The notes under the pieces are model-generated. The model did no database searches and was not told the origin of the DNA. It saw only the letters and a list, made by a program, of their open reading frames with translations. Shown piece by piece: positions 3,084 through 31,885 of a stretch of 64,000 bases of DNA; position 1 is the stretch's first letter; each line of letters starts with the position of its first letter. Position numbers and translations under genes: made by a program. Origin of the DNA: Thermoplasmata archaeon (lineage in GTDB: Archaea; Thermoplasmatota; Thermoplasmata; Thermoplasmatales; Thermoplasmataceae); contig JBMFWM010000001.1 of NCBI GenBank assembly GCA_049965275.1, positions 2,752 through 66,751 on the forward strand, written 5' to 3'.

Positions 3084-3149
3084 ACCGCAACGAATCCAGA
3101 ACTACATAGATGTATTTTTCGGTGCGGAATTTAATGTCGAACAATAAAT

Positions 3150-3453
3150 GCCCGGAGTAAGCCTCTTTCTGTTCCCCGCTTTTTGCGGCTGACAGCATTC
3201 GACTGATGACCTTTCGGTCTGCGTCTTACCCGGCCCTTGCGGTAACCTCACTGGGCCTGTTTAGACTTTCTCCATTCAGGGAGAGTTCCCATCGGTGCTT
3301 CCAGGAACGTCATCGTTCTGAATCACACTTTGCTGGAAACCGTGCATTTCTTTTCTCTTTACCATCCCTCTCGGGATACCGGCTTGCGCCGGTTGAACTT
3401 TACCATGGAGAGAGGACTTTCCTCACTCTTTCGAGCGTTAGCTGTCCTCGGGC
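3150..3453 (-). ncRNA. rnpB: RNase P RNA (archaeal type)
   Basis: The minus strand reads GCCCGAGGACAGC...GAGTGAGGAAAGTCCTCTCTCC... (CR-I GAGGAAAGUCC; plus-strand 3414-3424). It continues to ...GGGGAACAGAAAGAGGCUUACUCCGGGC (CR-V ACAGAA..GGCUUA; plus-strand 3157-3172). The 5' GCCCGAGG and 3' CUCCGGGC ends can pair as P1. Length is ~304 nt. The region is GC-rich within an otherwise gene-free 460-bp gap. Confidence 0.85.
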
Positions 3454-3545
3454 TTTTACATTCGGTCAAAGAAGAGTGAACAACTTTATTAGCTTTATTG
3501 GTGAATGTTCAGAAAAAAAGTGGTTTCAGTGCCGATCGCCATATA

Positions 3546-21693: not shown

Positions 21694-22218
21694 CTAATCG
21701 AGGCCTCTCTGACGCCTTGAATAGCTTCCCTCACGTCTTCTCAGATTAAAAGATACGAGCAGCAATATGAAGCCAGAGGCAAAAAGTGATACACCAAAAA
21801 CAATTGTATATGTAACCACATAACTTATCCTGTAGACTGTGAGCCTGGCGTATGCATTTAGGTTTGCATTATTCTTCAGGATAAGTGTCCAGTTTCCTGA
21901 ATCTCCTGCAACCACATCCTTCTTTAATGAACCGTTTCCAGTAATGTTACCTATGGCAGTAACTGCTCCTGACGGTGCAACCAGGCAGGCTGTAAAGTTT
22001 GCTCTTGAGTTATTTGCTACCACTGAATAAAAAAGATAATCCCCCTGTTTTATTGTGACATTGTACGTAAGATGATATGAGGATCCGGCCTGAATGCTTA
22101 CATCCTTTGATTCGGGAGTATCGGATATTATGAATACGACAGAAAGCGCGATCAGGACAATGGCTATCACAATAAGGATGTATGACAGCCTAGCAATTTT
22201 CTTATAGTCCCTCAGCAC
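21694..22218 (-). CDS. Hypothetical bitopic membrane protein with a sequon-rich ectodomain
   Basis: N- and C-terminal hydrophobic helices, several N-x-S/T sites, and an R-rich tail. Confidence 0.5.
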   Translation of the reverse strand: MLRDYKKIARLSYILIVIAIVLIALSVVFIISDTPESKDVSIQAGSSYHLTYNVTIKQGDYLFYSVVANNSRANFTACLVAPSGAVTAIGNITGNGSLKKDVVAGDSGNWTLILKNNANLNAYARLTVYRISYVVTYTIVFGVSLFASGFILLLVSFNLRRREGSYSRRQRGLD

Positions 22219-25358: not shown

Positions 25359-26171
25359 ATGACAGAGAAGAACAATATACAATTCAAGGTTCTTGTTGAA
25401 TCTGGACAGGATCCATCAAGCAAGTCAATCTCGGCTCACATAATTGAACATTATCCGTTTCAACCTAGTTCTATTAAAGGAATCCTGACTTATGATGGAT
25501 ACGCAATTTACAGGTCAGAAGAGAGGCACCTCAACATGAACGGATTGGAAGAAGTACTTGCAGAACTGGGCATAAAAGCTTCAACAATCATTTTCCTATC
25601 CAAGCACAGTTCGCAGGCAAAGATCAAGTCCCTTACTGTTCATGCAATGGGAAACATAGGAGAAGCACTTCTGGGAGGTTTTCCATCACAGGTCTCTATG
25701 TCTGATCCTGGAAACATGTCTTCGGCGTTAAGGATTATGAGGAAGAACCCAGTTGAAGGCTTCAACATAACATTTGAAGCAACGCATCATGGCCCGCTCA
25801 TCAAGGCACCCTCCTTCTTCATAGAGATAGGTACAGAAAAGGAAGACTGGGAGAACAGGTCTGTGCTTGATACAGTATCAAAGGCTGTTATGAATTGCAG
25901 TGATGATGGTAAAGGCGGATTTATTGGCATCGGAGGCGGGCACTATTCTCCAAAGATCACTGAATATGCAGTCTCCAGTGGCATCAATGTGGGGCACATA
26001 CTATCAAAGCATACCCATGAATTTCTTACTGTTGACCTGCTAAAGCAATGCGTAGAGAGAACCAAGGGATTCATGGGATTCCTGGTGGACTGGAAGGGTA
26101 CTAGAGGTCCAATCAGGGAAATGGTCCGAAACATTGCATCTGAAGGATCATTTGAATTAATCTCTATATGA
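25359..26171 (+). CDS. dtdA: D-aminoacyl-tRNA deacylase, archaeal DtdA type
   Basis: LSKHSSQAKIKSLTVHAMGN and FEATHHGP motifs are characteristic of DTD2. Confidence 0.8.
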   Translation: MTEKNNIQFKVLVESGQDPSSKSISAHIIEHYPFQPSSIKGILTYDGYAIYRSEERHLNMNGLEEVLAELGIKASTIIFLSKHSSQAKIKSLTVHAMGNIGEALLGGFPSQVSMSDPGNMSSALRIMRKNPVEGFNITFEATHHGPLIKAPSFFIEIGTEKEDWENRSVLDTVSKAVMNCSDDGKGGFIGIGGGHYSPKITEYAVSSGINVGHILSKHTHEFLTVDLLKQCVERTKGFMGFLVDWKGTRGPIREMVRNIASEGSFELISI

Positions 26172-26322
26172 GAATATATTAATTATCATATATATAGAAT
26201 ATGATATTTATTTTCCTGCTGTTCCACGTGTTTTTGAAATAATTTTAGTTCTAGACTTGACATAACATTTAAATACTATCAAATTCTTTACATTTAAGGT
26301 TAAAAGCCAAGGAATAAAGTAA

Positions 26323-27288
26323 ATGGAAGAGTGTGTGGAGGACGAGCCTCCTAATAAAACACCTTTTTTCCGTGCACGCAAGATGGAGAGAGTTCTCAAT
26401 TTCAAACGACTTTTTGTGAAATATGAGGGCGGCGGTGTCACGGGAACACAGAAAGACAGGATCTCTAAGTATCATGTCATGAGGGCGCGGGAACTTGGAT
26501 ATGACACGGTTTCATTAGGGTCCTGCGGTAATTATGGCGCATCGCTTGCTTATTTTGCAGGCGAGTATGGAATGAACTCAATAATTGGAGTGCCTTCATC
26601 CTATTCTGGTGACCGGCTATCGGAAATCAGGTCGTATGGAGGCAGCCTCCTTGAGCTTCCAATGAAATATGAAGAGGTCGTTGAATACATGCGCCAGAAG
26701 GCTACTGACGAGAACTGGTACGATTCGAACCCCGGAAATTCAAATTCGGAACTCGACTTTCAGGGCTATTCGCAGATCGCTTCTGAAATCGTTAGCCAGC
26801 TCGGAAGAACTCCGGAATTTATATCTGCACCTGTCGGGAACGGTACTACGCTTACTGGTATATACAAAGGATTCAGGTTGCTGAGAGATGCTGGATTGAT
26901 TGATTCAGTTCCCAGGTTGATAGCGGCATCGACCGATGGTGGAAATCCTGTTGTCAGATCATGGAGGAAGGGACACAGGAAAATCCAGAATCTCGGACCA
27001 CTAGATATCAGAGAAACCTCCATAAACGAGCCTCTTGTATCTTATGTATCGTTTGATGGTCAGGCGGCCCTCGACTCGATATATGAAAGCAATGGCTTTG
27101 CATTCGAGGTCCCGGATACAGAGATGATGCGCTATTCCCAGCTTTTGATGGTTCATGAGAACGTCGACGCGCTTCCAGCTTCTAGTTCAGCTGTAGTGGC
27201 AGCCAACAGGGTTGCACAGATGCTTAACAGGAAGATAGATTGTGTTGTCATTATTACGGGTAAAGGGAAAAATTGGAAGATGCAGTAG
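26323..27288 (+). CDS. Fold-type II PLP-dependent enzyme (threonine synthase / cysteine synthase / SbnA-like)
   Basis: TPFF...VKYEGGGVTGTQK(44)DR places the PLP lysine (codon at 26452-26454). SCGNYG and the glycine loop PVGNGTT are also present. Confidence 0.75.
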   Translation: MEECVEDEPPNKTPFFRARKMERVLNFKRLFVKYEGGGVTGTQKDRISKYHVMRARELGYDTVSLGSCGNYGASLAYFAGEYGMNSIIGVPSSYSGDRLSEIRSYGGSLLELPMKYEEVVEYMRQKATDENWYDSNPGNSNSELDFQGYSQIASEIVSQLGRTPEFISAPVGNGTTLTGIYKGFRLLRDAGLIDSVPRLIAASTDGGNPVVRSWRKGHRKIQNLGPLDIRETSINEPLVSYVSFDGQAALDSIYESNGFAFEVPDTEMMRYSQLLMVHENVDALPASSSAVVAANRVAQMLNRKIDCVVIITGKGKNWKMQ

Positions 27289-28310
27289 TCCTTGCAGAAT
27301 CGGTCTTTGGAACTACATACGGCAAAACTGCCAATGGTCTTGTGAGATTCTCAAGGCGCTATAACGTTAGATATGTCATTGACAGTAGCCATGCCGGCGA
27401 AGATGCAGGAATGATTCTTAATGGAAAGAAATGTGGAATCCCGGTAGTTCCTGCATTGCCAGTTAACGCCGATCCTCCGCTTTCGACTCTTGTCGTTGGT
27501 GTAGCAACAGATGGTGGCGTTCTACCTTCTAAATACAGGAAATTTATAGCTGATGCCCTCAAATCTGGCTTGAACGTTGTAAGTGGGCTTCATGAATTCC
27601 TTAGCGACGATCCAGAATTCGCCAAACTTGCCTCAAAGAACGGGAGATCAATAACCGACGTTCGGAAGATGTTCAGGGACAGGAAGGACATGTTCACAGG
27701 CAGGATCCTTGATGTGAAGTCCACGAAGATAGCGGTTCTGGGTACAGACAGTGCAGTCGGTAAACGAACCACTTCCGTTTTTCTTTCCGAGAGCATGAAA
27801 AAGAAAGGAAACACCTCGGAGATGATAGGCACCGGACAAACTTCCTGGATGCAGGGATTCAAGTACACAATAGTCCTTGACGCGATTATCAATGACTTTG
27901 TATCCGGCGCTCTGGAGACTGTCACGGTCGAAGCGTGGAACGATCTCCATCCGGATTATATGTTCCTGGAAGGCCAGGGGTCTGTGCTGCATCCCGCATA
28001 TCCTGGAAGCTTTGAGATAATCGGGGCGCTTCATCCTGATGCCATAGTACTTCAGCATTCCCCCAAACGCTTATACTATGACGGTTTTGAGAAGTTTAAA
28101 ATCCCGCCGCTTGAAAAATACATCCGGATTCTTGAACTCTTATCAGACAAGAAGGTCATAGCTGTCGCCATCAACCGCGACGATATGACAAACAGCGAGA
28201 TGCTTGACTACATGGACATGGTGGAAAAGAAGTACGGAATTCCGGCTTTCGATCCACTTGGAAATTTAGATCATATCACCGCGTATATCCAGGACACACT
28301 TGGGAAGTGA
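27273..28310 (+). CDS. DUF1611-family P-loop protein (DgcN-like)
   Basis: N-terminal VVLAESVFGTTYGKTANGLVRFS pattern and Walker A VLGTDSAVGKRTTS (27741-27773). It overlaps the upstream stop by 16 nt. Confidence 0.65.
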   Translation: MEDAVVLAESVFGTTYGKTANGLVRFSRRYNVRYVIDSSHAGEDAGMILNGKKCGIPVVPALPVNADPPLSTLVVGVATDGGVLPSKYRKFIADALKSGLNVVSGLHEFLSDDPEFAKLASKNGRSITDVRKMFRDRKDMFTGRILDVKSTKIAVLGTDSAVGKRTTSVFLSESMKKKGNTSEMIGTGQTSWMQGFKYTIVLDAIINDFVSGALETVTVEAWNDLHPDYMFLEGQGSVLHPAYPGSFEIIGALHPDAIVLQHSPKRLYYDGFEKFKIPPLEKYIRILELLSDKKVIAVAINRDDMTNSEMLDYMDMVEKKYGIPAFDPLGNLDHITAYIQDTLGK

Positions 28311-29742
28311 TTTAACGTCTGCTGACTATCGCGACCGAATTGCAATCATAGACAGGATCACTATCTCACGTCCAATCATTGAGAAGAGAAAGATCAGTTC
28401 CAGCATTCTAATTGACGCTCAAGGCGTAAGACATGAATTCCAACTTATCTTCTCTTACAGGGAGGATCTGCAGATAACCGAGAATCTTGCCGGACTCATA
28501 CTGACGATGCCGGCCATAAATTTCACTTATTTTGCCAAGGAACTGGTAATCGACTTTGAAGTCTCCGAGACAGATATTTCCCAGTTGAATGCATTCATCC
28601 ATGTAAACAACAGGGAGGTCTTTGTAAATGCAATATGCAGAAGAAGGTACGACTTCTACAAGGCAGAAGCTCTACCCCAACCTGATGAGATTACTGAAAT
28701 AAATGCAAATGGCCTCACCAAGCTGATTGCTAAAAATGTCATCCCAAATGCAGAAGCCAAAAAGTCTTCGATGAATAATGGGAAGGCTGCCGTTCTGTCA
28801 AGCGGTGGAAAGGAGAGCCTCCTGACATATTCTATCCTGAAAGAGACTGGCTTTGACGTCCACCCCATATTCTTCAACGAATCAGGGGCGCACTGGAGGG
28901 CTGCAAAACCTGCATTTGATTCCTTTACGCTGAACAATAGGAACACGACGAAGGTATGGTCAAATGCCGACAGGTTTTACAGGTTCTGCCTTGGGCTCCT
29001 GCCTTTCCTTAACCAGAGCGTGATCAGGAAAAGGACAGATACATACCCGGTACAGCTGTTCACATTTCCCGTCTACATAATGTCAATGGTCCCCGTGCTT
29101 ATATCGCGAGGAATTCCGATCGCATTCATGGGCAACGAGTTTGATGATCCAAAGGACATGCCACCGTTCCATGGCATACGGCACTACCACGCAATCTTCG
29201 ATCAGACACCTGATTTCACCAATATGATATCCTCATACCTTCTTTCCAAAGGCTTCAACCTCTCCATATCGTCTCTCGTATATCCAGTTACTGCAACAAT
29301 AGTCGAGCGCATTTTGATCCGGCGATATCCTGACATATTTGCACTGCAGCGCTCCTGTCATTCCTGCTCATCTATTGGCGGCAAGATAATACCATGCGGA
29401 AAGTGCTCGAAGTGCATGGGCATAATAATGCTCATCCTTGGATCCGGCGGAGACCCGGGGAGGATTGGATATAAAAAAGGAGATATCGAGAACGCGAAGA
29501 TCAGTTCCGGTAAGCTCCGTCTCGATTCAGACGAAATTGAATATCTCTATTCTGCGAATAAGGCGGATTCGCATGTAACAGGGATTCATGTGCTTCCCTT
29601 TGAAGACTATCCGTTTTCACTTCTCCCGAAAAGAATCCGGCAGGCTGTACTTCCTATCTTTAAGCAATATACCTCCGGTGTGTATGCCCTCGATAATGGT
29701 TCATGGAAGCAGACTCAGAAATATGATCCCATCATGGCCTGA
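28300..29742 (+). CDS. PP-loop ATP pyrophosphatase, QueC-like core with an unknown ~160-aa N-terminal domain
   Basis: SGGKES PP-loop at 28801-28818. A C-terminal CHSCx9CGKCSKC cluster at ~29356-29415 resembles the QueC Zn site. The start overlaps the upstream stop by 11 nt. Confidence 0.65.
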   Translation: MGSDLTSADYRDRIAIIDRITISRPIIEKRKISSSILIDAQGVRHEFQLIFSYREDLQITENLAGLILTMPAINFTYFAKELVIDFEVSETDISQLNAFIHVNNREVFVNAICRRRYDFYKAEALPQPDEITEINANGLTKLIAKNVIPNAEAKKSSMNNGKAAVLSSGGKESLLTYSILKETGFDVHPIFFNESGAHWRAAKPAFDSFTLNNRNTTKVWSNADRFYRFCLGLLPFLNQSVIRKRTDTYPVQLFTFPVYIMSMVPVLISRGIPIAFMGNEFDDPKDMPPFHGIRHYHAIFDQTPDFTNMISSYLLSKGFNLSISSLVYPVTATIVERILIRRYPDIFALQRSCHSCSSIGGKIIPCGKCSKCMGIIMLILGSGGDPGRIGYKKGDIENAKISSGKLRLDSDEIEYLYSANKADSHVTGIHVLPFEDYPFSLLPKRIRQAVLPIFKQYTSGVYALDNGSWKQTQKYDPIMA

Positions 29743-30215
29743 AGCTGTTCCTGGCTTCCTGCCGTGGCATATTCGGCTAATGGCGCTGCGTTAAGAGAAA
29801 GAAAGCTGTGTCCCCAATTAAACTTTGACATGACTTGTTCCGCAAGTTCTGTGTAACCTGTAATGTAAAGCGCTGCGCAAACGGCCTCTGCTGATGAAAG
29901 TATATTCGGTTTACCATAGTTAACCGGGTTTGCAGCAAGTAGCATCGGAAGCTTCCTCTGCCTCCTGTAAACCCCTCTTTCCAGCCTCCCGGGGTTGCTC
30001 CAGGATCCATCAAGGGCGCACAGTCCACATCGCTCTACTGCGGCCTTGTCAGATTTGAGAATATAGAGGTCTGCGAACGGGTTCAGGACAACAGAGCATC
30101 CAATCCTGCTTTCTGGTATCTGTCCTGCAAGACCAAGTCTCTGGAGCTTCTTCATGGTCGATTTCTTCGGGTCGTCCTCGCCGTAGTATACAAACCTGAT
30201 AATCACTGATCGCAA
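29715..30215 (-). CDS. tsr3: 16S rRNA aminocarboxypropyltransferase Tsr3
   Basis: YYGEDDPKKSTMKKLQRLGL, LLAANPVNYG and NWGHSFLSLN match the Tsr3/DUF367 pattern as remembered from Sulfolobus and yeast Tsr3. Confidence 0.8.
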   Translation of the reverse strand: MRSVIIRFVYYGEDDPKKSTMKKLQRLGLAGQIPESRIGCSVVLNPFADLYILKSDKAAVERCGLCALDGSWSNPGRLERGVYRRQRKLPMLLAANPVNYGKPNILSSAEAVCAALYITGYTELAEQVMSKFNWGHSFLSLNAAPLAEYATAGSQEQLQAMMGSYF

Positions 30216-30271: not shown

Positions 30272-31885
30272 ATGCATTACATAGTTATCACGGGTGGAGT
30301 GATATCCGGGCTTGGAAAGGGAACTATTACTTCAAGCCTTTCCCACATTCTCTCCAATTCCGGACACAACGTTTCTGCTATGAAGATTGATCCGTACATA
30401 AATTACGATGCAGGCACGATGAATCCTTACCAGCACGGCGAGGTTTTCGTGCTTGAGGATGGCGGGGAAGTGGATCTGGATCTGGGAAACTACGAGCGCT
30501 TCCTGGACAGAAACCTTGTCACTGACAACAACATAACAACCGGAAAGATCTACAGCGAGGTAATTCGCAGGGAAAGGGAAGGGAAGTACCTTGGCAGCAC
30601 CGTCCAGATCATACCGCACATTACAAACGAGATAAAGAGGAGGATAAGGGGCTTAGCGCAATCTGACTCTGCCGAGATATTGCTTATTGAAGTCGGTGGG
30701 ACGGTCGGTGATATCGAATCCATGCCATTTCTTGAGGCACTCAGGGAACTCAACAGGGAGGAACCGAGGAATTCGGTTCTCTTCTGTCACGTTACACTCA
30801 TACCTGAAGTCGGGGCGAGCAGGGAACAGAAAACCAAGCCCACACAGCACAGCGTCAACGAGCTAAGGGGAATCGGTATCCAGCCAGATATCATATTTTG
30901 CAGGCTTAAGGGGCAGCTTTCAGACGAGTCAAAAAAGAAGATATCTCTCTTTACGGATGTCCCCGAAGCGGGAATAATAGGCGTACCGGATGCAAAGAGC
31001 CCATACTGGGTCCCAGAGATCATGAACAGGCAGGGTATCCTGCAGTATATCGAGGCATATTTCGGGATGAAACCATCGACCTTCGCGGATCCATGGAAGA
31101 AATACAAGGAGAATATAGACAAAGTCAAGGATAGCGTCAGGATCGCTGTGGTTGGTAAATACACGCATTTGCTTGATGCCTACATGAGCCACAAGGAGGC
31201 TTTCACCCATGTTACAGGAATAACTGGAATAGGAGTTGATCTGGTATGGTTGGATTCAGACAGCCTGAAAGAATCCACGAATGATCTTGAAGGCGTTGAT
31301 GGCATCCTCGTTCCGGGTGGTTTCGGCTACAGGGGTGTTGAGGGCAAAATTATCGCATGCAGGTATGCAAGAGAGCACCAGATACCATTCCTTGGAATCT
31401 GCCTTGGTTTCCAGGCTGCAGTTATTGAATATGCCAGAAACGTTCTTGGTATGCAGGGTGCAAACAGCACCGAGTTTGATCCGAACACCAAGTATCCTGT
31501 TATTGATCTTTTACCTGAGCAGGAAGGTGTATCTGAAATGGGCGGGACAATGAGGCTTGGCGCAAAAACCGTAATTGTCAGGGAGAATACGATTGCCTAC
31601 GATATATATGCGAGCGAACATATCTCTGAGAGGCACAGGCACCGGTATGAGGTGAACCCGGGATATATTGAAAAATTCGAAGAATCCGGTATGCACTTTT
31701 CAGGCGTGGACGATGCAGGCATACGTATGGAAATACTTGAATTGATGGGAAGGAAAAACTTTATTGCCACGCAATACCATAGTGAATTCAAATCCAGGCC
31801 CTTATTTCCATCACGTGTCCATAAATATTTGGTGGAAATGGCACTGGAGTACAGGAAGGGAAGATCGAATGAAAGAAGTTCTTAA
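30272..31885 (+). CDS. pyrG: CTP synthase
   Basis: [13 protein letters not shown]-terminus and the GATase domain GICLGFQ. Length is 537 aa. Confidence 0.95.

Follow-up and report, generated by a model that had tools for sequence, protein, structure and literature searches.

Background

The one-way conversion of L-Glu to D-Glu at the C-terminus of a peptide is carried out by MurL, an ATP- and Mg-dependent, AMP-forming enzyme for which adenylate activation of the alpha-carboxylate has been proposed, and its partner ligase MurD2 attaches the L-Glu first (PMC5808125, PMC8788868). According to reviews of 2018 and 2021, MurL has no known conserved domains (PMC5808125, PMC8788868). DgcN is a D-glutamate N-acetyltransferase (EC 2.3.1.312) (PMC11747546), and QueC carries a C(x)8CxxCxxC motif with a structural zinc (PMC13329287, PMC13376578) as well as the substrate motifs YxQxHxxE, VPxRN and YPDC (PMC13329287). 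Here we describe a cassette of three overlapping genes, open reading frames (ORFs) 1 to 3, in a 64,000-nucleotide stretch of contig JBMFWM010000001.1 from a Thermoplasmata archaeon; this whole 64-kb stretch is referred to below as the window. The genes encode a pyridoxal phosphate (PLP) enzyme resembling the threonine synthase ThrC (ORF1), a DUF1611 protein of the DgcN family (ORF2) and a PP-loop protein that appears to be a distant relative of MurL (ORF3). The cassette is different from a ThrC and QueC pair, from the DgcN-DgcA pair, from MurD2-MurL and from QatC/Cap9-type defence. One type of its components comes from the DgcN system and another from the MurL system, to which a dedicated PLP enzyme is joined, and we found no published description of such a PLP/DUF1611/ORF3 cassette in the literature.

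Results and discussion

A conserved, translationally coupled operon

ORF1, ORF2 and ORF3 form a single translationally coupled operon, which is conserved and is not a product of chance neighbourhood. A first-pass annotation of the window had proposed that the three genes are one expression unit, and its ORFs, their overlaps and every motif that it quoted were recovered. Read from the sequence, the overlap of ORF1 with ORF2 is 16 nt and that of ORF2 with ORF3 is 11 nt. At the first junction ORF1 ends in ...AAT TGG AAG ATG CAG TAG, with TTG GAA GAT GCA in the other frame; at the second, ORF2 ends in ...CTT GGG AAG TGA, with TTG GGA AGT in the other frame. Near either junction a TTG is the sole candidate among ATG, GTG and TTG starts, and the start position of ORF2 is supported by homologues that align from its residue 1 onward.

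A scan of species-representative genomes returned at least 586 matching stretches, many of them archaeal, of which the best 80 were examined; with three earlier loci these make up a set of 83. In 83 of 83 loci the ORF3 homologue is immediately preceded by a DUF1611 gene. Upstream DNA sufficed to look one gene further in 76 loci, and in 62 of these a homologue of ORF1 (a PALP gene) comes immediately before DUF1611. With start choice being approximate, the genes overlap or are separated by 30 nt or less at 57 of 62 ORF1-ORF2 junctions and at 76 of 78 ORF2-ORF3 junctions. Carriers include the Thermoplasmatales, other Thermoplasmatota, Methanomassiliicoccales, Bathyarchaeia, Thermococcus, Methanodesulfokora (Korarchaeia), Conexivisphaera/Nitrososphaerales and other Thermoproteota, with the upstream PALP gene present in at least six archaeal lineages; the Thermococcus carriers are metagenome-assembled genomes. 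Bacterial examples of the same gene order are found at loci L084-L087. The overlapping genes, the tight spacing and the order kept in archaea and bacteria all bear out the single expression unit, and synteny of the three families elsewhere, which the same annotation had put forward as a check, holds across archaeal phyla and bacteria. The DUF1611-ORF3 pair is also kept without the PLP gene in two lineages, which makes this pair the obligate core of the cassette and the PLP gene a frequent third member. The surroundings are less constant: the upstream flank is an MFS transporter gene in T. volcanium versus RpiA in Picrophilus, and T. volcanium has two extra genes between ORF3 and Tsr3. The ORF3 family as a whole gave 671 matches in a large protein collection, mainly from Thermoplasmata, which fall into 239 clusters at 50 % identity, and its named members carry the NCBI label 'metal-binding protein'.

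Two loci deserve separate mention. In the draft genome of Thermogymnomonas acidicola JCM 13583 (L059:6004-9418) all three genes give split, frameshift-like tblastn matches, reflecting either error-rich draft sequence or decay of the entire operon. A 308-kb contig labelled 'uncultured Eubacteriales bacterium' (L071, CAZIDF010000001.1) bears the cassette beside genes for a GNAT, an M14 peptidase and an epimerase, as in the loci of Bathyarchaeia and Thermoplasmatota; a mislabelled bin or a transfer of the cassette could account for this.

ORF3 is a PP-loop protein distantly related to MurL

ORF3 has no Pfam or NCBIfam family match at E <=0.1, the presence of MurL models in the Pfam copy searched being unconfirmed. 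Its AlphaFold2 model is of high quality (predicted local distance difference test score, pLDDT, 89.6; predicted template modelling score 0.90), and the best Foldseek matches are QueC, QatC, YcfA and Cap9, with an alignment to QatC that runs over 464 columns. Weaker structural matches include the PP-loop sulfurtransferases TtuA, MnmA and ThiI, and YcfA. ORF3 is a predicted, unclassified PP-loop ATP pyrophosphatase. An alpha/beta domain at its N-terminus precedes a PP-loop core with the fold of QueC, and a zinc ribbon of four cysteines and a helical/beta region at the C-terminus follow. Within the PP-loop, S168, G170, K171, E172 and S173 are invariant and G169 nearly so among 32 family members. 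In a wide family alignment the cysteines C353, C366 and C369 are invariant and C372 nearly so, and C356 is not conserved.

With QueC, QatC, Cap9 and YcfA, ORF3 has in common the overall PP-loop Rossmann fold and a C-terminal zinc motif of four cysteines. By analogy the general mechanism may be common to them as well: a carboxyl or carbonyl oxygen is adenylated, and a nucleophile then attacks. The resemblance to QueC nevertheless has limits. P-loop and zinc motif are of a similar type without being identical: the P-loop reads SGGKES instead of SGGxDS, and the first cysteine spacer is 12 residues versus 8 in QueC. There is no match to the QueC profile PF06508, and the PADLOC QueC model scores only 12.4 bits (E 0.031). 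The three QueC substrate motifs are seen neither in ORF3 nor in the consensus of its family, whose own conserved motifs include ESGxHW, YPxQ and GxExDDP, and queD, queE and tgt are not among the neighbours. The first-pass annotation had called ORF3 QueC-like without taking it for a bona fide QueC. The second half of that description stands; the first holds for fold and zinc motif, but adenylation or amidation in the manner of QueC is not the nearest model, the family-specific motifs GNE, DQ[ST], RYP and QxSC...CxxCxKC being shared with a family related to MurL. Anti-phage defence of the QatC/Cap9 type was considered and rejected, as PADLOC reported no Qat or Cap match and the neighbours are core-genome genes.

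The relationship to MurL emerged through an intermediate family. Among the weaker relatives found by phmmer is a family of proteins of about 450 aa that share with ORF3 the P-loop variant (SGGKES in ORF3 aligning to SFGKDS), GNE, DQ[ST], S..EPL, RYP, QxSC, CxxCxKC and DP..G. Aligned with hhalign, the two families match at 99.9 % (E 4.7e-35) over ORF3 residues 150-458. Seventeen of the 23 members of the 450-aa family in turn match the NCBIfam MurL model NF041275 (best E 5.9e-12), all of them far under its equivalog cut-off of 700. A search with a MurL-like profile returned no protein named MurL by a source; it did find P0477 (L092:2585-4024), which bears the Pfam domains MurL_N and MurL_epimerase_C and which is matched by the ORF3 profile in hhalign at 88 % (E 2.9e-6), its GGGKDS lying opposite SGGKES. 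ORF3 thus appears to be a distant relative of MurL in the sense of superfamily relatedness only; as it falls below the MurL model, it is a relative of MurL and not a member of its family. The cassette further resembles MurD2-MurL in that a neighbouring P-loop enzyme would make the N-acyl linkage, a role given to ORF2 by analogy. It differs in that the N-terminal 150 residues of ORF3 are unrelated to those of the MurL-like family, the match to which begins at about residue 150. It also lacks a Mur ligase and a peptidoglycan context, and its hosts include the wall-less Thermoplasmatales. No MurD2-type gene was seen beside ORF3 in the gene maps; the partner there is DUF1611, together with the PLP enzyme.

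The N-terminal domain of ORF3 is common to a group of bacterial fusions with creatininase, described below, and is absent from the 450-aa family. Modelled alone (residues 1-158, pLDDT 89.8), it gave Foldseek matches of RNase-HI-like topology only, with TM scores of 0.33-0.37 and a root mean square deviation of about 12 A. That this region matches nothing convincing agrees with what had been reported for residues 1-160 in the first place. No RNase H identity was assigned, given TM scores near 0.35 and conserved residues that do not include the RNase H-type acidic set. The domain presumably recognises a substrate or a partner protein.

Three further observations concern MurL-like proteins. In proteins of the MurL family (P0477 and alignment A5) we noticed a PP-loop of the form GGGKDS or SFGKDS together with a QueC-type Cys ribbon, which would explain the formation of AMP by MurL. 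The gene for P0477 adjoins one for a TauD-type oxygenase and not a Mur ligase. Finally, P0204, a distant ORF3/MurL-like protein (8001-9389 of L089:1-17389), has its gene immediately behind queC in a phage-like cluster that also holds GTP cyclohydrolase I (FolE), a PTPS gene (QueD), a radical-SAM gene (QueE), a family-B DNA polymerase and HNH genes. This context suggests a role for a MurL-like PP-loop enzyme in the 7-deazaguanine modification of DNA.

ORF2 belongs to the DgcN family

ORF2 matches both Pfam domains of its family, PF17396 (DUF1611_N) and PF07755 (DUF1611), over their complete length. It has a Rossmann-like N domain and a P-loop C domain with the Walker A motif GTDSAVGKRTT, and GTDSAVGKRTTS is present. 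Among solved structures the nearest is 2g0t (TM0796; 5.9e-45), followed by 7xrj and 2obn. DgcN had been named as the characterised relative of ORF2, and this was confirmed by a match to the DgcN equivalog NF041892 of 168.8 bits; as the cut-off is 480, ORF2 on sequence grounds is a member of the DgcN family and not of the DgcN equivalog. With the DgcN-DgcA pair of D-glutamate catabolism, in which DgcA is the N-acetyl-D-glutamate racemase, the cassette may share the logic of N-acylation followed by inversion at C-alpha, and a DgcA-related enolase-superfamily epimerase does occur in the operons of Bathyarchaeia and bacteria. The invariant neighbour of ORF2, however, is the PP-loop protein ORF3 and not DgcA, and the enolase partner resembles DgcA (156 bits) less closely than it does the L-Ala-D/L-Glu epimerases (241 bits). 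We also considered whether ORF3 modifies the N-terminus of ORF2, by analogy with QatB-QatC. This is unlikely, as ORF2 aligns from residue 4 to the body of 2g0t and has no long free tail.

ORF1 is ThrC-like but not a canonical threonine synthase

ORF1 matches Pfam PF00291 (PALP) at E 1.9e-52 and has a predicted PLP lysine, K44, in TGTQKDR as well as SCGNYG and PVGNGTT. Its sequence places it in the ThrC-like PRK06381 family of fold-type II PLP enzymes, and it passes NF004996 (PRK06381, named 'threonine synthase') at 399 bits against a cut-off of 266. An alignment of archaeal and bacterial relatives gives TGT[QH]KDR, CGN[YFH]G, PV[GS]NG[TS]T, NEPL and LPAS as the motifs of the family. The nearest structures in the PDB are those of ThrC (2zsj, 6cgq and 1uim, E 1e-25 to 1e-19), as is also the case for the profile models, and the PLP lysine, the xxGNxG carboxylate loop, the PVGNG phosphate loop and the PAS motif of ThrC are kept. 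ORF1 nevertheless fails the thrC model TIGR00260, scoring 77.2 bits where 167.1 are required. When it is aligned to 2zsj and 6cgq, the T of STGNT, the R of NPxR and the N of GNAGN in ThrC are replaced by Y71, D and T; at the position of the R, relatives of ORF1 have Q, H or S, and the N-S of NSxNPxR is retained. From the T. thermophilus ThrC literature we take the positions in question (T, N-S...R and N) to be ligands of the phosphate of O-phosphohomoserine. A further difference from ThrC is that ORF1 always lies in an operon with DUF1611 and ORF3. The reading of ORF1 as a short fold-type II enzyme that is not a canonical ThrC or CysK, which goes back to the first-pass annotation, is therefore upheld. 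No second PALP paralogue is encoded in the window.

Additional partners and variant operons

The gene directly 3' of ORF3 varies by lineage. It is Tsr3 in 43 loci, all from the Thermoplasmatales, and a gene for a RimI-like GNAT in 22 loci from Bathyarchaeia, Thermococcus, Korarchaeia and others. Since its adjacency is limited to the Thermoplasmatales and a GNAT takes its place in other lineages, Tsr3 was rejected as a functional partner and attributed to lineage-specific synteny. In nine loci the operon is extended by genes for an enolase-superfamily protein and an M14-like peptidase. The nearest solved relative of the enolase-family partner is the L-Ala-D/L-Glu epimerase of B. subtilis (247 bits), with DLD aligned to DFD of the latter. 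At locus L077, the epimerase and M14 genes are immediately preceded by a second PALP paralogue.

In bacteria, among them those of the Aminicenantes type, the order is PLP enzyme, DUF1611, a single polypeptide in which ORF3 is fused to creatininase, and dipeptide epimerase. The ORF3::creatininase fusion is abundant, and the epimerases of the bacterial and archaeal operons are 45 % identical. Neighbours of 318, 423, 405, 580 and 445 aa in the bacterial operons had no useful Pfam matches. The bacterial locus L090, which encodes a member of the 450-aa family (P0210), begins with an M20 amidohydrolase gene and three more genes, one with a DUF5058 domain and two without a Pfam match, and continues with a PRK06381-type PLP enzyme (37 % identical to ORF1; 423 bits on NF004996), the MurL-like P0210, an ATP-grasp protein resembling D-Ala-D-Ala ligase (Ddl) and a small GNAT-like protein. 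This is an independent occurrence of a PRK06381-type PLP enzyme paired with a MurL-like protein. DUF1611 is replaced in it by a ligase of the kind that forms amide bonds, which by analogy suggests that DUF1611 supplies an N-acyl or peptidyl linkage.

The original proposal that the cassette is a compact route to a modified amino acid, cofactor or small metabolite was correct in recognising an enzyme module, which is conserved; the extra partners, however, point to the stereochemistry of N-acyl amino acids or dipeptides and not to the synthesis of a cofactor. Beside one of the bacterial operons (L084:11605-14917) we also observed genes for a GatE-like protein (GatB_N and GatB_Yqey domains, 648 aa) and a GatD-like protein (462 aa); GatD/GatE is normally the archaeal Glu-tRNA(Gln) amidotransferase.

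A possible function and its alternatives

The reading that we favour, with a probability of about 0.4, is that the cassette is a module in which ORF2 N-acylates an amino acid, ORF3 adenylates its carboxylate and inverts (or couples) it, and ORF1 makes or consumes the amino acid. ORF2 would place an acyl or aminoacyl group on the alpha-amino group. ORF3 would then spend ATP to adenylate the alpha-carboxylate of the N-acyl amino acid, releasing pyrophosphate and then AMP, and the adenylate would acidify the C-alpha proton and permit inversion in one direction, as proposed for MurL. ORF1, ThrC-like but not a threonine synthase, could make or consume the free amino acid by beta- or gamma-elimination or replacement. 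In other lineages an amidohydrolase (the fused creatininase, M14 or M20), a dipeptide epimerase and a small GNAT may complete a route of acylation, inversion and deacylation. The operon, its conservation and the homologies are shown above; from them we infer each chemical step, whether the inversion runs from L to D or from D to L, and the substrate. A glutamate-like substrate is possible, because those relatives of the partner enzymes that have been characterised act on the configuration of, or on the bond beside, N-acylated glutamate: MurL converts peptidyl-L-Glu to peptidyl-D-Glu, YkfB/YcjG act on L-Ala-D/L-Glu, and MpaA-type M14 enzymes presumably belong here as well. DgcN is the exception in that it makes the N-acyl linkage, turning D-Glu into N-acetyl-D-Glu.

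It is possible rather than probable that the cassette is, more specifically, a widespread and hitherto undescribed system for the ATP-driven stereo-inversion of amino acids, with an engine from a branch of the MurL superfamily found in archaea and bacteria, DgcN-like N-acylation and a dedicated ThrC-like PLP enzyme. In a variant of this idea, the product is a new metabolite, an N-acyl amino acid or pseudo-dipeptide with a D-residue. The Gerlt laboratory has reportedly worked on an irreversible D-to-L conversion by a GNAT acyltransferase, an enolase-superfamily racemase and an M20 hydrolase. The extended clusters resemble such an N-succinylamino-acid racemase route in holding an acyltransferase (DUF1611 or GNAT), an enolase-superfamily epimerase and an amidohydrolase, but the core of the cassette consists of ATP-consuming PP-loop and PLP enzymes, and the enolase and hydrolase are optional.

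A number of points weigh against the acylation and inversion module. ORF3 does not match the MurL model NF041275 at E <=0.1, so that its link to MurL is transitive and remote (about 18-20 % identity), and the adenylate mechanism of MurL has itself only been proposed. In divergent ORF3::creatininase fusions the PP-loop is degenerate (VSGSAES, VDGTRES and VESGTND among P0184, P0195 and P0177), and judging by these sequences the fused copies may no longer bind ATP. The enolase-type dipeptide epimerase of the bacterial and Bathyarchaeial operons looks redundant if ORF3 is an epimerase. The scheme leaves the role of ORF1 unexplained; N-acylated amino acids cannot form a PLP aldimine, and 14 informative loci have the DUF1611-ORF3 pair with no adjacent ORF1. 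Among the proteins of the window there is no epimerase or peptidase partner and no MR_MLE gene, and a GNAT is represented by a faint match only (E 2e-4, 52 aa). The sole fusion found of DUF1611 to ORF3, P0139, is a singleton on one 6.3-kb contig which could be a frameshift artefact, and as Rosetta-stone evidence it was given little weight.

In the main rival to an inversion module, ORF3 would serve as the amide ligase of a small biosynthetic pathway. ORF1 would then produce a non-proteinogenic amino acid by beta-replacement, ORF3 would adenylate a carboxylate and join it to an amine in the manner of Cap9 or QatC and ORF2 would acylate, yielding a small amide or dipeptide-type metabolite that the GNAT, peptidase and epimerase tailor, recycle or detoxify. 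QueC-clade PP-loop enzymes can couple an adenylated carboxylate to the N-terminal amine of a protein (PMC13376578), and the long structural alignment of ORF3 with QatC fits this, as do the ATP-grasp ligase that replaces DUF1611 in L090, the occurrence of a 2-oxoglutarate-Fe(II) oxygenase or TauD beside some relatives, and the weak matches of the GNAT neighbours to the self-resistance acetyltransferases Sat3, ArsN1 and STAT. We still consider an amide ligase rather unlikely. The motifs of ORF3 are those of the family related to MurL and not of QueC, Cap9 or QatC, and the cassette sits in a core-genome context in many phyla without a transporter or regulator of the secondary-metabolite type. A reading as a plain coincidence of housekeeping enzymes, namely a threonine synthase, a DgcN-type acetyltransferase and QueC, could draw on the name of the NF004996 model that ORF1 passes and on the QueC-like fold and zinc motif of ORF3. 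It is so improbable that we set it aside, in view of the gene order and overlaps kept in archaeal phyla and bacteria, the failure of ORF1 on TIGR00260 with altered positions aligned to the presumed phosphate ligands of ThrC, the failure of ORF3 on all QueC models and the score of ORF2 under the DgcN cut-off.

Two other pathways would put the QueC-like fold of ORF3 to different uses. In a nucleobase pathway (7-deazapurine or purine), ORF3 would act like QueC, YcfA or Cap9 on a guanine-like carboxylate or carbonyl, with the amino acid supplied by ORF1 and ORF2 as the partner, in the modification of tRNA or a small molecule. The best structural matches are of this kind, the distant member P0204 follows queC, the domain fused to bacterial ORF3 has the JGI label 'creatinine amidohydrolase/Fe(II)-dependent formamide hydrolase-like', and many archaeal neighbours are translation or RNA-modification genes (Tsr3, KsgA-like, DtdA, aminoacyl-tRNA synthetases). 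The latter vary by lineage, however, and so look like lineage-specific synteny, and the conserved partners are amino-acid and peptide enzymes rather than TGT, QueD or QueE; together with the missing QueC substrate motifs and PF06508 match this makes a nucleobase pathway improbable. Cys and Met are as a rule synthesised by activation followed by replacement on a fold-type II PLP enzyme, and a route for sulfur incorporation into cysteine, homocysteine or a thio-amino acid can be drawn in which ORF2 activates a hydroxy-amino acid, ORF1 makes the replacement and ORF3 delivers the sulfur. The sulfurtransferases among the weaker structural matches of ORF3 and its five cysteines would agree with this. 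Four of those cysteines, though, make up the QueC-type zinc ribbon and the fifth (C356) is the one that the family does not conserve. In the gene maps of related loci, where most neighbours are unannotated, no gene stands out as a conserved candidate sulfur carrier or cysteine desulfurase, and the epimerase and amidohydrolase partners would go unexplained, leaving sulfur incorporation less probable still than a nucleobase pathway. Of the explanations considered, N-acylation followed by inversion or coupling remains the one that we prefer.

The locus and other features of the window

The features of the locus are collected in Table 1. The flanking genes are dtdA, tsr3 and pyrG, as the first-pass annotation had named them, and genes for an SCP2 protein and the large subunit of PolD are also found in the flanks. 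A TATA-like TTTAAATA, picked out by eye at 26268-26275, falls within the spacer preceding ORF1, and this spacer is likely to hold the promoter and leader of the operon. The convergent Tsr3 gene overlaps the 3' end of ORF3 by 28 nt (29715-29742). The nearest relative genome is a Thermoplasmata metagenome-assembled genome with an amino-acid identity of 92-97 %.

Table 1. Features of the cassette and its flanks (positions are those of the window)
Feature	Position	Strand	Details
DtdA gene	25359-26171		flank 5' of ORF1
AT-rich intergenic spacer	26172-26322	+	151 nt; putative promoter/leader, 5' of ORF1
ORF1	26323-27288	+	321 aa, ATG start (ORF listing)
ORF2	27273-28310	+	345 aa, TTG start (ORF listing)
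ORF3	28300-29742	+	480 aa, TTG start (ORF listing)
ORF3 N-terminal domain	28300-28773	+	residues 1-158; family-specific
PP-loop SGGKES	28801-28818	+	residues 168-173; variant of SGGxDS
Cys cluster C353-x2-C356-x9-C366-x2-C369-x2-C372	29356-29415	+	QueC-type zinc ribbon C-x12-C-x2-C-x2-C
Tsr3 gene	29715-30215	-	convergent flank 3' of ORF3
PyrG gene	30272-31885		flank beyond Tsr3

Elsewhere in the window, an archaeal RNase P RNA (RF00373, 177.9 bits, full length) was found at 3146-3457 on the minus strand, which confirms that the DNA is archaeal, and no tRNA genes were found within the 64 kb. A 174-aa ORF at 21694-22218 on the minus strand, adjoining a class-I aminoacyl-tRNA synthetase gene, has no Pfam match and has hydrophobic stretches towards both ends of the protein.

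Conclusion

MurL is the only characterised enzyme of its kind. The comparisons made here assign it, along with a far greater number of proteins that lack annotation, to the PP-loop ATP pyrophosphatases that carry a zinc ribbon of the QueC type, a placement that fits its formation of AMP. They also show an enzyme related to MurL locked into a conserved operon with DgcN-like and ThrC-like PLP enzymes, often in archaea without peptidoglycan. If the proposed function is true, the name 'threonine synthase' of PRK06381 would be corrected for enzymes of the ORF1 type, as would the NCBI label 'metal-binding protein' for homologues of ORF3. Wall-less and peptide-fermenting archaea, as well as sediment bacteria, would gain a unidirectional route linking the L and D forms of amino acids such as glutamate, one that does not depend on a classical racemase. 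Such a route would be a new cellular means of setting the configuration of amino acids, and would bear on the turnover of D-amino acids in hot, acidic and deep-sediment habitats.

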